From the IMG/VR virus record IMGVR_UViG_2896601577_000010: 14,746 nucleotides of DNA. The stretch is one strand, 5' to 3'. The number at the start of each line of letters is the position of its first letter. Position 1 is the first letter of the stretch. This document shows positions 10,833 through 14,746 of the stretch, piece after piece. The stretch is from a virus. Taxonomy: Duplodnaviria > Heunggongvirae > Uroviricota > Caudoviricetes. The notes beneath the pieces were generated by a model. It was not told where the DNA came from. It saw nothing but the letters and a program-made list of their open reading frames with translations, and did not search any database. Both the position numbers and the translations under genes were made by a program.

Positions 10833-11651
10833 TTAAGCAGTCATCTGATGATATTTTTCCCTGAAGGCTGCCGGGGAGATATTCCCCAGACGAGAGTGAC
10901 GACGCTGACGATTGTAGAAAATCTCAATGTATTCCCGTATTACTGAGATGGCTTCATCCCGGTTATTAAAACGATAGTGGCTCAGGCTCTCATTTTTCAG
11001 CGTTCCCCAGAAGCTTTCCATCGGAGCGTTGTCGTAACACTGACCTTTACGCGACATTGATGTTTTCAGACCAGACTGCTCCTGTATGACCCGGTAATCG
11101 TATGCGCAGTACTGTGAACCTCGATCAGAGTGGTGGATTAGCCCGGCAGGTGGGCGCTGGCTCCTGAGCGCCATAAACAGGGCTTTACCTGTCAGCTCTT
11201 TTGTCATGCGCTCTCCCATGGCGTAGCCGACAATTTCGCACGTATAAACATCTTTGATGCCAGCGAGGTACAACCATCCCTCCTGTGTGGCAACATACGT
11301 CAGGTCCGCCACCCAGACCTGATTTGGTGCTGTAGGAGCGAACGTCTGGTTCAGCAGATTTGGCGCAACTGGCAGATTGTGGTTCGGGTTCGTAGTCGCT
11401 CTGAACTTGCGTTTCTGCTTACAGCGTAGCCTTAGCTCCTTACGAAGACGTGCCAGTCGGTCACGACCAACGATGATGCCATTCTCTGCCAGCTCCGTCT
11501 GGAGCCGCCGGGTTCCATATGTTTCGCGAGTGCGGATATGTGCCACCTTAATCTCCAGTTTTAGCCGCTCATCACTTTGTTTTCTGTCTGAGGGTTCATG
11601 CTGTACCCAGTTGTAATAACCGCTCCTGGATACACCAAATACCTGACACAT
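10833..11651 (-). CDS. IS3-family transposase OrfB (DDE catalytic domain)
   Basis: 272-aa ORF with ...VWVADLTYV...HHSDRGSQYCA...CYDNAPMESFWGTLKNE... (DDE/rve signature). The frame continues upstream to the slippery site, as expected for OrfAB. Confidence 0.85.
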   Translation of the reverse strand: MCQVFGVSRSGYYNWVQHEPSDRKQSDERLKLEIKVAHIRTRETYGTRRLQTELAENGIIVGRDRLARLRKELRLRCKQKRKFRATTNPNHNLPVAPNLLNQTFAPTAPNQVWVADLTYVATQEGWLYLAGIKDVYTCEIVGYAMGERMTKELTGKALFMALRSQRPPAGLIHHSDRGSQYCAYDYRVIQEQSGLKTSMSRKGQCYDNAPMESFWGTLKNESLSHYRFNNRDEAISVIREYIEIFYNRQRRHSRLGNISPAAFREKYHQMTA

Positions 11652-11686
11652 CGCTTCAATGGGAAATTGTTGTCGCCATTGTTCGA

Positions 11687-11989
11687 TTAACGCGTATTTT
11701 TCAGCGACTCCTGTGCAAAATACGCTGTTGCTTTTTTTAATATATCTCGCTCAAGGCGAGCTTCATTTAACGCCTTACGCAGTTGCAGAATTTCAGATTC
11801 CAGTTCAGCCACCGTGCGGGAACCAGGAGTACCGAGCCCTTTTCTGGCGGCGGTAACCCATTGTCCTAAAGTGCCTTCAGGAAGGGATAATCGGGAAGCG
11901 CCTTCACTGATCGAAAGTTGATTTTCAAGAACCGTTCTGACAGCTTCGGCTTTGAACTCTTTAGAGTAACGTTGGTTTTTTCTGCTCAT
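11687..11989 (-). CDS. IS3-family transposase OrfA (HTH DNA-binding subunit)
   Basis: 100-aa ORF MSRKNQRYSKEFKAEAVRTVLENQLSISEGASRLSLPEGTLGQWV... with a C-terminal leucine zipper-like region. ATG at 11989 is preceded by AAGGAG. Confidence 0.85.
   Translation of the reverse strand: MSRKNQRYSKEFKAEAVRTVLENQLSISEGASRLSLPEGTLGQWVTAARKGLGTPGSRTVAELESEILQLRKALNEARLERDILKKATAYFAQESLKNTR
11741..11750 (-). promoter_or_regulatory. Programmed -1 ribosomal frameshift site (A7G) for OrfAB transposase fusion
   Basis: Minus strand ATATTAAAAAAAGCA encodes ...ILKKA near the end of orfA; the orfB frame is open upstream to this point. Confidence 0.5.
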
Positions 11990-12050: not shown

Positions 12051-12494
12051 TCAGTCCTGTGCCCCTTCCAGCTGCTTCTGCATTGTCATCAACCGTTCTC
12101 TGAGGATGAAATAATCCCGTTCAGCGGTGTCTGCCAGTCGGGGGCCGGTTGCATTATCCACGCCGGAGGTGCCGGTGGCTTCACGCACGGTACCGGAGCA
12201 GGTGGCGTTGATCCGCAGGCGCTTACGACCAGCGGCAACATCAGCACGCAGAGTTTCATTTTCAGCTCTCGCATCGGCTAATTCCCTCGAGTATCTGGCA
12301 TCAAGTGCAGCGACATCACGCTGGCGTATCTGCATATCAGTAATTGTCGCGTTCGCCAGCTCCAGCTCACTGGCTTTTTTATCGCGCTGCTCTTTGTAGA
12401 TGATGGCGTGAACACGGTAATGATTCAGCCCCAGACTAAGCGCACCACAGGCCACCAGCAGGGCAATGATGACCACGCACAAAACACGGTTCAT
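12051..12494 (-). pseudogene. Rz: Rz (i-spanin), C-terminus truncated by the IS insertion; stop codon supplied by the IS terminus
   Basis: MNRVLCVVIIALLVACGALSLGLNHYR...ERDYFILRERLMTMQKQLEGAQD has an N-terminal TM segment and coiled coil, very similar to lambdoid Rz. The reading frame ends in the TGA formed by the first three bases of the IS inverted repeat (12051-12053). Confidence 0.8.
12089..12274 (-). CDS. Rz1: Rz1 (o-spanin lipoprotein), embedded in the +1 frame of Rz
   Basis: MRELKMKLCVLMLPLVVSACGSTPPAPVPCVKPPAPPAWIMQPAPDWQTPLNGIISSSENG has lipobox LVVSAC and a proline-rich mature part, closely resembling lambda Rz1. Entirely nested within Rz. Confidence 0.75.
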   Translation of the reverse strand: MRELKMKLCVLMLPLVVSACGSTPPAPVPCVKPPAPPAWIMQPAPDWQTPLNGIISSSENG

Positions 12495-12495
12495 A

Positions 12496-12609
12496 TCACC
12501 ACCAACGGATTGCCCAGACCAGAACAGCAATTGCCACAATACGAATGGCAAAAGCTGCCGCTCTTGTTAAATCCAGACTGGCTGGCGTCTCCACTTCAAT
12601 GCCTTTCAT
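12496..12609 (-). CDS. Candidate small membrane protein (37 aa) translationally coupled to Rz
   Basis: ATG at 12609 lies 9 nt after GAGG. MKGIEVETPASLDLTRAAAFAIRIVAIAVLVWAIRWW has one predicted TM helix. Its TGA at 12496-12498 sits 1 nt before the Rz ATG (TGAtATG). It is not in the supplied ORF track (below the length cutoff). Confidence 0.3.
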   Translation of the reverse strand: MKGIEVETPASLDLTRAAAFAIRIVAIAVLVWAIRWW

Positions 12610-12704
12610 AATGGACAACCTCAGAAAGAATCTTTTATACTTCCTCACAGGGAAAGCACCTCCCTCACCATAATTTCTCCCTTGCCTTACTCAAGGTCAG
12701 AAAA

Positions 12705-12748
12705 CACAAAACCCCGCTTGCTGCCAACAAACGGGGTTTTTACTTTTA
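12705..12748. terminator. Bidirectional intrinsic-terminator-like hairpin between the endolysin and the Rz region
   Basis: AAACCCCG (12708-12716), a 15-nt loop, then CGGGGTTT (12732-12739), followed by TTTTTACTTTTATT on the plus strand and preceded by the complement of TTTGTGTTTTCT (T-rich on the minus strand). Confidence 0.45.
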
Positions 12749-12829
12749 TTCACTTAGGTTTTGCCAGTTCACAGGACTTCGTGTTATCCGCCCGCGTGAG
12801 CAAGCGTCATTTTTCAGCAAAATATTCTG

Positions 12830-13363
12830 CTACCTGTCGATACCCCAGCACGCCAGCGCGCTCTCCTGGTCACGCCGCGATACCTGCCCGTAACAGTTAT
12901 TTGAGCGGTTCCGACAGTCCCTGCCGCCGTCATATATCCAGCGACGAATTTCAGCACATGCACCTTTCCGGTCTCCGGCGTTCAGTTTCCGGTAAAACGT
13001 TGAGCTGAAACACTTACCGGGGCCAATGTTGTACGGACAGAATGACGCGATCCCCGATTTCTGGGGTTCGGTCAGCGGCACTTTGATGTTTTTCTCCACC
13101 CATGCCAGCGCCTTATCACGTTCAATGGCGTTAACCTGGTCGCATTTCTCCTTCGACAACTTCATGCCCGGGACGACAGGTTTACCATCCACCAGAATGG
13201 CACCGCGGCAGATGGTCCAGATACCCGCGCCATCACGGTATGCCGTGGTGTGGTTACCTTCCTTTTCATCCAGAAACTGGTCGAGAATGTCAGGCGCAGG
13301 CGCACCAGCGGCAATCAGCGCCAGAACGGCAGCCGACAGGCCGTATCTGATTTTTGCGTTCAT
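12830..13363 (-). CDS. Phage lysozyme R, SAR (signal-anchor-release) endolysin type, glycoside hydrolase family 24-like
   Basis: 177-aa ORF. The N-terminus MNAKIRYGLSAAVLALIAAGAPAPDILDQF is a weakly hydrophobic SAR-like segment, followed by EGNHTTAYRDGAGIWTICRG (E/D/T catalytic motif of T4/P21-type lysozymes). Resembles the Qin-prophage RrrQ lysozyme by recall. Confidence 0.85.
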   Translation of the reverse strand: MNAKIRYGLSAAVLALIAAGAPAPDILDQFLDEKEGNHTTAYRDGAGIWTICRGAILVDGKPVVPGMKLSKEKCDQVNAIERDKALAWVEKNIKVPLTEPQKSGIASFCPYNIGPGKCFSSTFYRKLNAGDRKGACAEIRRWIYDGGRDCRNRSNNCYGQVSRRDQESALACWGIDR

Positions 13364-13468
13364 GGATATTTATCAGGATTTATCGGTTTCTGAGCCCTGG
13401 ATATGTTTATCAGTTCCAGCCTGTTGCCTCAGGCTGCTAACAGGTCAATACAATCATGAGGATTATTT

Positions 13469-13741
13469 ATGGACAATAACACCATTTCTCTACAGGAGTT
13501 GCTCGACAGCATTTCCAGGCTTCGGGAAGACGTGAATACCCTTACCGTCGCCTTCTCATATCTGGCATTCTCAATTCCAAGGGAACAGATGCAATCAACG
13601 CTGGCATCAATCCAGTTTGAATCATGCAATCCCAAATGGTCTCAGGAACAACAAGACTCTTTCAGGCGGCTTGCTGTATTACTGGATGAAAAATATGCTG
13701 GTAAAATTACCATTTCGGCGGACTCTTCAGAGAACCCGTAA
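13469..13741 (+). CDS. Hypothetical protein (90 aa), low GC, opposite strand to the phage late genes
   Basis: ATG at 13469 lies 8 nt after GAGG. MDNNTISLQELLDSISRLREDVNTLTVAFSYLAFSIPREQ... has no recognisable family. Its 3' end overlaps the 3' end of the 13707-14051 gene by 35 bp (convergent). Confidence 0.35.
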   Translation: MDNNTISLQELLDSISRLREDVNTLTVAFSYLAFSIPREQMQSTLASIQFESCNPKWSQEQQDSFRRLAVLLDEKYAGKITISADSSENP

Positions 13742-14051
13742 TTATTCCCGGTAGTTTTCCTCTGTAGGTTATCAACACATCCTGCGCCTCTAAAATTACG
13801 GGGCGCTTTTCCGGCGACTGCTCATCCCCTTCACATAACCCGGCAGCAACATCCAGGAAGACCTGTCTGATGCTCCTTCTGGCTGCTGCCTCATAAAACT
13901 CCAGCGCGGCACCTTCAACACGGTCCAGCGAGATGTCCAGGTCAAAAATTTCACCGTCAAAGCGTTTTTTGTCCCGTAACGCTAAAGTTACCGTAACTTT
14001 ATTCTCAAAATTGCGGATCCCTTTCACAATCAGTTCATAGTTTTGAGTCAT
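13707..14051 (-). CDS. Phage protein, possibly YdfR/DUF1327-like (114 aa)
   Basis: ATG at 14051 is preceded by GGAGAG. MTQNYELIVKGIRNFENKVTVTLALRDKKRFDGEIFDLDISLDRVEGAALEFYEAAARRSIRQVF... The upstream part of the 159-aa track ORF is encoded by the IS911 terminus and is excluded. The family assignment is from memory and unverified. Confidence 0.5.
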   Translation of the reverse strand: MTQNYELIVKGIRNFENKVTVTLALRDKKRFDGEIFDLDISLDRVEGAALEFYEAAARRSIRQVFLDVAAGLCEGDEQSPEKRPVILEAQDVLITYRGKLPGIITGSLKSPPKW

Positions 14052-14113
14052 TGAATTACTCTCCCCGTGCAGCCTTACGACGGTCCTCTCTGATTTTGAA
14101 ATACAGGTTAGTC

Positions 14114-14415
14114 TGAAGTGGCACACTGAATTTGGCCACCTGAACAGAGGTGATATGCTCACCTCAGAACAACACAGGTGCTCCAATGAAAAAAAGAAAT
14201 TTTAGCGCAGAGTTTAAACGCGAATCCGCTCAACTGGTTGTTGACCAGAAATACACGGTGGCAGATGCCGCCAAAGCTATGGATGTTGGCCTTTCCACAA
14301 TGACAAGATGGGTCAAACAACTGCGTGATGAGCGTCAGGGCAAAACACCAAAAGCCTCTCCGATAACACCAGAACAAATCGAAATACGTAAGCTGAGGAA
14401 AAAGCTACAACGCAT
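14114..14415 (+). mobile_element. IS911-like (IS3 family) left-end fragment, interrupted by IS1
   Basis: Starts TGAAGTGGCACACTGAATTTGGCCACC (IS3-family TG terminus), with the orfA ATG 72 bp in. The element ends abruptly at the IS1 terminus at 14416. Confidence 0.7.
14186..14415 (+). pseudogene. IS911 OrfA (InsN-like) truncated after about 77 codons by the IS1 insertion
   Basis: [76 protein letters not shown] matches IS911 OrfA. The frame then reads 7 IS1-encoded codons (MVMLPTY) to a stop at 14435-14437. Confidence 0.8.
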
Positions 14416-14746
14416 GGTGATGCTGCCAACTTACTGATTTAGTGTATGATGGTGTTTTTGAGGTGCTCCAGTGGCTTCTGTTTCTATCAGCTGTCCCTCC
14501 TGTTCAGCTACTGACGGGGTGGTGCGTAACGGCAAAAGCACTGCCGGACATCAGCGCTATCTCTGCTCTCACTGCCGTAAAACATGGCAACTGCAGTTCA
14601 CTTACACCGCTTCTCAACCCGGTACGCACCAGAAAATTATTGATATGGCCATGAATGGCGTTGGATGCCGGGCAACTGCACGCATTATGGGCGTTAGCCT
14701 CAACACGATTTTACGTCACTTAAAAAACTCAGGCCGCAGTCGGTAA
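14416..14746 (+). mobile_element. IS1 (partial copy, truncated by the window edge), canonical isoform
   Basis: Begins with the IS1 inverted repeat GGTGATGCTGCCAACTTACTGATTTAGTGTATGATGGTG. insA starts 55 bp in. The A6C frameshift motif TTAAAAAAC is at 14720-14728. Confidence 0.9.
14471..14746 (+). CDS. insA: IS1 transposase InsA
   Basis: 91-aa [94 protein letters not shown]. Confidence 0.9.

Follow-up and report, generated by a model that had tools for sequence, protein, structure and literature searches.

The lysis cassette of phage 21 comprises the S21 pinholin, the R21 signal-anchor-release (SAR) endolysin, and Rz/Rz1. In the Qin prophage of Escherichia coli K-12 (essQ-ydfR-rrrQ-rzpQ) and in the Stx-type phage BP-4795 (S-ydfR-R), the order is holin, 4 nucleotides (nt), ydfR, and endolysin. 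Lambdoid phages also carry morons, such as lambda bor, which lies next to the lysis genes on the opposite strand, and prophages of Bacillus subtilis contain type I toxin-antitoxin pairs, including txpA/RatA and bsrG/SR4, that are convergent and overlap at their 3' ends. These are the closest known counterparts of a locus in the IMG/VR virus record IMGVR_UViG_2896601577_000010 (Caudoviricetes), whose whole stretch of 14,746 nt is referred to here as the window. The interval followed up, positions 13364 to 14113, lies directly upstream of a SAR endolysin gene and contains ydfR together with a 90-amino-acid (aa) open reading frame (ORF) on the opposite strand, designated orf90. The locus is most probably a cassette of the phage 21 type in which the holin gene has been truncated by an insertion sequence (IS), with ydfR and the opposite-strand orf90 as regular accessory genes and orf90 resembling a moron. 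As in phage 21, intact relatives encode a 71-aa class II holin (PF04971), a SAR-like endolysin, and a Rz-type spanin downstream; unlike in phage 21, ydfR and orf90 lie between holin and endolysin, and the holin of the window has been cut to 18 codons by an IS, which presumably leaves the cassette non-functional.

In a search of 5426 complete E. coli genomes, 1037 matched 80% or more of positions 13300 to 14200, and the best 30 of these 1037 are all annotated as "class II holin family protein," "YdfR family protein," "hypothetical protein," and "lysozyme," in that order. In E. coli CE10 and an O121 strain, a holin gene (71 aa) is followed after 4 nt by ydfR (114 aa), then by the opposite-strand gene for WP_000369850.1 and by the lysozyme gene. 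Identity of the window to CE10 extends through position 14113; the letters that come next, TGAAGTGGCACACTG, are the terminus of an IS3-family element. Translation of the 57 nt at 14056-14112 gives TNLYFKIREDRRKAARGE followed by a stop codon, and these residues correspond exactly to residues 54 to 71 of the intact 71-aa CE10 holin, which is of the class II, pinholin type and matches PF04971 ("Bacteriophage P21 holin S," E = 9e-33). Because the remnant (14056-14113, minus strand) equals residues 54 to 71 of the CE10 protein, both transmembrane domains have been removed by the IS insertion; only the charged tail is left, and the copy in the window is a truncated pseudogene rather than a class II holin gene. 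The stop codon of the remnant (14056-14058) sits 4 nt before the ydfR ATG (14051), as it does in CE10, the O121 strain, K-12 Qin, BP-4795, and E. coli B. The holin gene was truncated by an IS3-family insertion and was not replaced. The original prediction, which held that the holin slot had been replaced by a convergent gene pair, is thus contradicted by the intact relatives, in which the holin lies immediately 5' of ydfR, and by the last 18 codons kept in the window. It was right that no membrane-protein ORF lies upstream of the endolysin, as no transmembrane-like stretch was found in any open frame among the six frames of 13364-14113 (best 19-residue Kyte-Doolittle mean, 1.38), but it overlooked the holin remnant.

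The left end of the IS3-family element occupies 14114-14414 (plus strand) and was called from the sequence and from the annotation of matching E. coli records; we take the element to be IS911 from its end sequence and its orfA. The distance between the IS end (14114) and the start of ydfR (14051) is 62 bp, close to the 60 bp or so originally given. The orfA gene begins at 14186 and is cut by an IS1 (break at 14414/14415), the left end of which (GGTGATGCTGCCAACTTACTGAT...) spans 14415-14746 on the plus strand and includes insA at 14471-14746. The sequence from 14114 to 14746 had a 98.7% match to E. coli records whose annotations read "IS3 family transposase" and "IS1-like element IS1A family transposase." The IS junction of the window occurred in none of the complete E. 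coli genomes searched. The IS3-family element inserted after holin codon 53, leaving residues 54 to 71 in place and separating the rest of the holin gene and everything upstream from ydfR, the endolysin, and Rz, and IS1 then inserted into the IS3-family element. Because the holin is gone and the upstream late operon is displaced by the IS elements, we infer that the cassette of the window cannot cause timed lysis. The prophage is heavily decayed elsewhere as well: the gene for the terminase large subunit is in two parts, one for the ATPase (7956-8507) and one for the nuclease (6848-7462), and the portal is represented by a fragment of 138 aa (3641-4057). Capsid, head-completion, and HK97-gp10-like genes are likewise on the minus strand (window positions 1-9100). 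A further IS3-family element, which is IS600 in matching E. coli records, is located just downstream of Rz at 10833-11989 (OrfA, 11687-11989, 100 aa, HTH_Tnp_1; OrfB, 10833-11651, 272 aa, rve). Its presence alongside IS911 and IS1 hints at a Shigella-like host. The apparent anomaly is ordinary prophage decay, an IS-cut holin in a decayed lambdoid prophage.

The presence of orf90 has nothing to do with these IS elements. The gene (13469-13741, plus strand; RefSeq WP_000369850.1) matches PHROG 2411 over its full length (E = 1.1e-58), and it overlaps the 3' end of ydfR by 35 bp (13707-13741), both the ORF and the overlap being as originally described. Its good ribosome binding site and low GC content were likewise borne out, with a GAGGA Shine-Dalgarno sequence at 13458-13462, 6 nt 5' of the ATG, and a GC content of 0.451 (0.438 for the segment that carries it), compared with 0.562 for the endolysin gene and 0.543 for the window. 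That segment is a stretch of 306 bp (13410-13715), containing the upstream region and codons 1 to 82 of orf90, that is present in the window, precisely where ydfR ends, and absent from BP-4795, while the flanks are nearly identical. The gene was placed on this indel because BP-4795 reads holin, YdfR, endolysin without it: S is followed by a 114-aa YdfR with the same C-terminal tail, 50 nt, and R. The last eight codons and the stop codon of orf90 are outside the indel, in shared flank that is antisense to the 3' end of ydfR, and the overlap of the two genes exists because these codons run into the antisense of the ydfR tail at the place where the segment sits. The K-12 Qin prophage also lacks orf90 and, unlike BP-4795 with its 50-nt gap, has an ATGA overlap between ydfR (103 aa) and rrrQ; its homology to the window stops at about YdfR codon 70 and returns just before the endolysin ATG. 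Of the two alternatives originally offered, the one that has IS insertion removing the holin and an uncharacterized inserted sequence supplying the 90-aa ORF was therefore essentially right.

The orf90 segment was found in 1221 of the 5426 complete E. coli genomes, among them E. coli B (strain C3029, 2217277-2220582; locus L101), where the order is essD-ydfR-orf90 (WP_000370546.1)-rrrQ-lysis protein. The E. coli B cassette occupies a Rac-like position, with sieB/ydaF on one side and trkG on the other. Among GenBank phage records, orf90 appeared in only 3, whereas 83 E. coli phage records contained the YdfR tail. The gene is conserved in the intact relatives, its insertion is old and common, and the convergent ydfR/orf90 pair is a common and already annotated arrangement. 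A larger module of about 465 bp that included the YdfR tail, delimited from comparisons with K-12 and with locus L088, was revised, as BP-4795 has the tail without orf90 and the tail is canonical DUF1327.

As judged from its conservation, orf90 is a genuine protein-coding gene, an uncharacterized accessory. In all 13 lineages examined, which reach down to about 27% identity, the orf90 frame stays open, while the antisense frame with aligned third codon positions contains 1 to 4 stops in 12 of the 13, and the start codon and the GAGGA Shine-Dalgarno sequence are conserved. Over the 237 nt that do not overlap ydfR, the ratio of nonsynonymous to synonymous substitution rates (dN/dS) was 0.10 to 0.40, and variable columns were distributed 39/29/68 over the three codon positions. 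The dN/dS ratio was dropped as decisive proof of coding, as the third-position-aligned antisense frame scores alike, and frame integrity across lineages was used instead because dN/dS cannot separate orf90 from this shadow frame.

A first search returned 62 homologues of orf90, mostly of 90 aa and down to 59% identity in Citrobacter. Profile searches enlarged the family to 21 cluster representatives and 247 proteins, every one of which is about 80 to 100 aa long and comes from Enterobacterales. An AlphaFold2 model built with 52 family sequences (mean predicted local distance difference test [pLDDT] score, 82.7) contained helices at residues 8 to 35, 38 to 52, and 59 to 77; residues 80 to 89 were below a pLDDT of 50 and are predicted to be disordered. 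The product is accordingly modeled as a cytoplasmic three-helix protein of an uncharacterized family of about 90 aa. A match to "anti-silencing protein Mip" reached 13.7 bits against a 50-bit cutoff and, together with the matching PHROG 10887 match, was taken as chance. Literature searches (WP_000369850, ybl58, phrog_2411) found nothing on orf90.

Distant members of the family are single genes in the chromosomes of Serratia marcescens and Winslowiella, in the order pyrC-dinI-X-bssS-solA (L095, 3001-3282; L096 and L097, 3001-3276). In both genera a dinI terminator lies upstream of the homologue, the Winslowiella gene has its own downstream intrinsic terminator, and no late-strand gene was called opposite the homologue. 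A LexA-box-like sequence, aactgtataaataaacagta, is present upstream of dinI in L095. We know of no gene between dinI and bssS in E. coli K-12. Scans of viral contigs with the remote homologues P0077, P0065, P0074, and P0063 found no further loci.

Phage-borne homologues occur in several settings. Citrobacter meridianamericanus has one of 83 aa, encoded on the opposite strand and directly upstream of a holin gene of the lambda S type (PF05106), which is followed by a CHAP endolysin and then by a DUF2514 spanin. Two IMG/VR contigs encode a homologue of about 33% identity on the opposite strand between two tail genes (ORFs of 115 and 242 aa), beside the tape measure gene. One Logan contig has the order holin-orf90-lysozyme, with the DUF1327 domain missing, and in L088 orf90 is next to a mere 23-codon remnant of its partner. 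At these other late-operon positions the homologues are always on the opposite strand, and the placements fit a portable cargo gene, or moron, pointing against the late operon. In the Citrobacter prophage (L005, 4087-4770), a HicA/HicB toxin-antitoxin pair adjoins the 238-aa partner ORF and is another cargo insertion beside a lysis cassette.

Like lambdoid morons, orf90 is small cargo of lower GC content than its neighbors, is present or absent between otherwise colinear late operons (BP-4795 and K-12 Qin lack it), is oriented opposite to the late operon, and has homologues elsewhere in late operons, both among tail genes and in another lysis cassette. In three other lineages, late-strand intrinsic terminators flank the unit just past the 5' end of the orf90-like gene. 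It may quite plausibly be a moron in the functional sense, independently transcribed cargo against the late operon that is on in the lysogen and off after induction. In this model a promoter of its own would drive orf90 in the repressed prophage, and convergent late transcription would shut the gene off upon induction. The orf90 product might be a small soluble protein-binding or regulatory factor; that its target is the C-terminal tail of the convergent partner is a tentative suggestion that we consider rather unlikely.

A number of results weigh against the view of the locus as a truncated cassette with a moron-like orf90. Unlike in lambdoid morons, the 3' end of orf90 overlaps the neighboring late gene, the predicted product is a soluble three-helix protein and not an envelope protein, and a consensus scan found no sigma-70 promoter or terminator for orf90. 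In a promoter candidate picked by eye, TTGCCT-19 nt-TACAAT, the spacer is long, and transcription would begin within the Shine-Dalgarno sequence. The -10-like TACAAT is at 13449-13454, and a lineage of 82% identity keeps it together with TTG-N3 and GAGGA, with the sequence between them changed. A hairpin and T-run, GCGCCTC-9 nt-GGGGCGC-TTTTCC, at 13784-13812 (plus strand), 43 nt past the orf90 stop and within the ydfR tail, could serve as the end of an orf90 transcript; it is not specific to orf90, because it is also in BP-4795, which lacks the gene. The direction of the 306-bp indel can be read as insertion here or as deletion in BP-4795. The dN/dS of the orf90 frame (0.24) is close to that of the antisense shadow frame (0.26). 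Function is indicated neither by Pfam, NCBIfam, and PADLOC, which gave no match for orf90 or for four distant homologues, nor by the fold, as structure comparison found no specific fold relative of the model. Finally, a simple single-gene moron does not account for a C-terminal motif shared by the convergent partners of orf90 homologues.

The motif is found in the tail of YdfR. The YdfR-like 114-aa gene (13707-14051, minus strand) was identified correctly, as its product matches PF07041 (DUF1327) over residues 1 to 111 (E = 7.3e-43; 145.2 bits against a cutoff of 25) and PHROG 406 over its full length. The protein shares about 70 N-terminal aa with K-12 YdfR, with 81% identity confined to residues 1 to 74; K-12 YdfR, in contrast, has 103 aa and another C terminus. 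The 44 C-terminal aa of the window protein, which terminate in ...IITGSLKSPPKW, belong to the BP-4795 type. The gene is a mosaic: its N-terminal 70 aa share only about 53% identity with BP-4795 YdfR (13842-14051 against 2291-2500 of L100), but the DNA encoding the tail is, like the flanks, nearly identical, with a breakpoint near codon 64. Codon-level comparison placed the motif-bearing tail in the last 27 codons of ydfR (13710-13790, minus strand). This tail belongs to the canonical DUF1327 profile, and a search with a tail profile returned almost only partial DUF1327 fragments. In longer PHROG profiles (183 and 296 aa) and in the fragments P0199 and P0211, the ...GSLKTPP motif is internal and is followed by a coiled-coil extension. 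The literature search on DUF1327 yielded one comparative-genomics paper, which is unrelated. K-12 YdfR bound the N-terminal (catalytic) half of RNase E through residues 1 to 72 in bacterial two-hybrid (BACTH) and pull-down assays, co-purified with RNA, and caused no growth defect when overproduced, although that protein has a different C terminus (PMC13232886).

In four phage-borne lineages, the ORF convergent with the orf90 homologue ends in I-x-G-[S/E/D]-L-x-x-P-[P/M]-x-x, of which the form in the window is I-x-G-S-L-x-x-P-P-x-W. Besides that of the window, the partner C termini are ...RIKGSLRTPPKR in L087, ...RIIGSLITPPEL in L086, ...KITGSLRVPMKL in Citrobacter, and ...QIFGELKKPPSY in the tail-region contigs. 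The N-terminal parts of the partners are unrelated, being a DUF1327 domain, a 238-aa protein without a Pfam match, a 61-aa ORF, and an 85-aa coiled coil, and the overlap with orf90 is 35, 20, 14, or 7 nt depending on the lineage. The motif was defined after the data had been seen; it occurs at 95 C termini among the 16,291 open frames of all loci collected, and every one of these is a partner ORF or the BP-4795 YdfR. It is selected as protein and does not arise as an antisense shadow of orf90, because its codons differ synonymously and its register relative to orf90 shifts. Late-strand intrinsic terminators lie about 100 to 125 nt beyond the orf90-like start in three lineages, so the partner transcript would be antisense to all of orf90.

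These observations are the basis of the strongest rival explanation, in which the ydfR tail and orf90 form a functional convergent two-gene module, either a sense/antisense switch or a toxin-antitoxin-like protein pair with orf90 binding or neutralizing partners that bear the tail, that is carried as a unit into late operons. The orf90 family gene and the partner tail would then be an ancient portable sense/antisense cassette working either as an inhibitor/target pair or as a lysogeny-to-late switch. In it, orf90 would be made in the lysogen and would later either be turned off as late genes are transcribed or attach to the late protein's tail, possibly with a link to the reported binding of YdfR to RNase E. 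The recurrent convergent overlap in four phage-borne lineages, a tail shared by partners with unrelated N-terminal parts, selection of the motif as protein, its absence from all other C termini, and the terminators after the pair in three lineages all favor this explanation. Both the cassette and the switch or pair it would constitute are nevertheless unlikely. BP-4795 carries the tail-bearing YdfR without orf90, the tail is far more frequent in E. coli phage records than orf90 (83 against 3), and Serratia, Winslowiella, Sodalis, and one E. coli locus have orf90 homologues but no partner, with only the 23-codon partner remnant in L088. The geometry of the pair, convergent with 3' overlap in a prophage, resembles that of the type I toxin-antitoxin pairs and permits RNA duplex formation and transcriptional interference. 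In contrast to those pairs, ydfR and orf90 both encode conserved soluble proteins and there is no small hydrophobic toxin. No toxin-antitoxin or defense model in Pfam, NCBIfam, or PADLOC matched ydfR or orf90, neither protein has a recognizable toxin or antitoxin domain or a hydrophobic segment, and neither is membrane-active or nuclease-like. Overproduced K-12 YdfR was harmless to growth, but that protein is without this tail (PMC13232886), and the post hoc definition of the motif also counts against the module. The second alternative originally offered, a toxin-antitoxin-like module, is therefore doubtful at best: the conserved convergent pairing stands, but such a pair is unlikely because each gene occurs without the other.

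Far less credible is the view that orf90 is no gene and only a chance or shadow ORF antisense to a long intergenic region between ydfR and the endolysin or to a late-strand frame, such as the 68-codon, TTG-initiated frame at 13429-13635 (minus strand), whose third codon positions coincide with those of orf90 on the other strand and which has a similar 69-codon counterpart in L086. The equally low dN/dS of the third-position-aligned antisense frame (0.26), which is nearly open with 0 to 2 stops in the closest lineages, and the presence of orf90 in only three GenBank phage records are consistent with this view. However, the 68-codon frame itself looks like a shadow of orf90, because stops break it in 12 of 13 lineages whereas orf90 is open in all. 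Conservation of the start codon and Shine-Dalgarno sequence, the free-standing chromosomal homologues between dinI and bssS, the Winslowiella one with an intrinsic terminator of its own, the 247 same-length proteins found by the family profile, and the confident AlphaFold2 model all argue for a gene. Least credible of all, and refuted, is that the ydfR/orf90 pair replaced the holin in a cassette variant that never had one there, which has only the absence of a membrane-protein ORF in 13364-14113 in its favor and against it the holin 3' end still at 14056-14113 and the presence of holin, ydfR, and orf90 together in all intact relatives inspected.

The spacer between the endolysin start and the orf90 start (13364-13468) contains, besides the TACAAT and GAGGA elements, direct repeats and a hairpin that had been noted previously. 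The repeats exist, with copies at 13364-13376 and 13399-13413, the second of which had been misplaced at 13402-13416; they are a short two-copy match that is indistinguishable from chance. On the endolysin side of the indel lie the first copy and, of the second, the part that reads ACATATCC. A target-site duplication was considered and rejected, and the repeat is not an insertion scar, because both of these stretches are also present in BP-4795, which lacks orf90. The hairpin CAGCCTG/CAGGCTG also exists, at 13417-13436 rather than at about 13420-13440, and is partly kept (GCCTG..CAGGC) in the 82%-identity lineage. It was rejected as a terminator, having no U-tract on either strand and only partial conservation, and the spacer 13364-13468 folded no better than shuffled sequences (z = -0.25).

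Apart from orf90, the phage genes in 12051-14113 are all on the minus strand. The endolysin gene (12830-13363, minus strand) encodes a 177-aa protein of the phage 21 R/RrrQ type that matches PF00959 (E = 3.4e-26), with its closest solved structures being 3HDE/3HDF (3HDE, E = 1.2e-19) and RrrD 4ZPU (E = 2.3e-19). Its N terminus includes an Ala/Gly-rich, weakly hydrophobic segment, YGLSAAVLALIAAGAPAP, at residues 9 to 27 (Kyte-Doolittle mean, 1.74), and the translation has the triad pattern E34-x8-D43-x5-T49 (EGNHTTAYRDGAGIWT), which aligns with the corresponding region of R21. The label of SAR endolysin given originally is sound because of the PF00959/3HDE-type relatives, the SAR-like N terminus, and the E-x8-D-x5-T pattern, all read from sequence; release of the enzyme from the membrane is a prediction. 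The gene for the Rz-type spanin (i-spanin; PF03245 Phage_lysis, E = 1.5e-44) is at 12051-12551 (minus strand) in the ORF list, where it begins at a TTG; its real start is probably an internal ATG (MNRVLCVV...). A gap of about 280 bp (12552-12829) separates the endolysin from Rz in the window, and relatives contain cargo at the same position, including ParD/ParE-like genes and a Rha-family gene in L088, the Ant antirepressor in BP-4795, and small hypothetical ORFs in the O121 strain. This gap is a second hot spot for inserted genes. No tRNAs were found in the window, and the sole Rfam match was a sub-threshold rimP-leader at 12675-12750.

The useful outcome of the analysis is the definition of a family of three-helix proteins of about 90 aa that is restricted to Enterobacterales and has no curated family model. 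About one-fifth of complete E. coli genomes carry orf90 in a lysis cassette, where a conserved and unusual convergent overlap links it to the DUF1327/YdfR tail. Because binding to RNase E and co-purification with RNA were recently reported for K-12 YdfR (PMC13232886), the ydfR/orf90 pair offers a cheap and testable entry into the role of lysis-cassette accessory genes.

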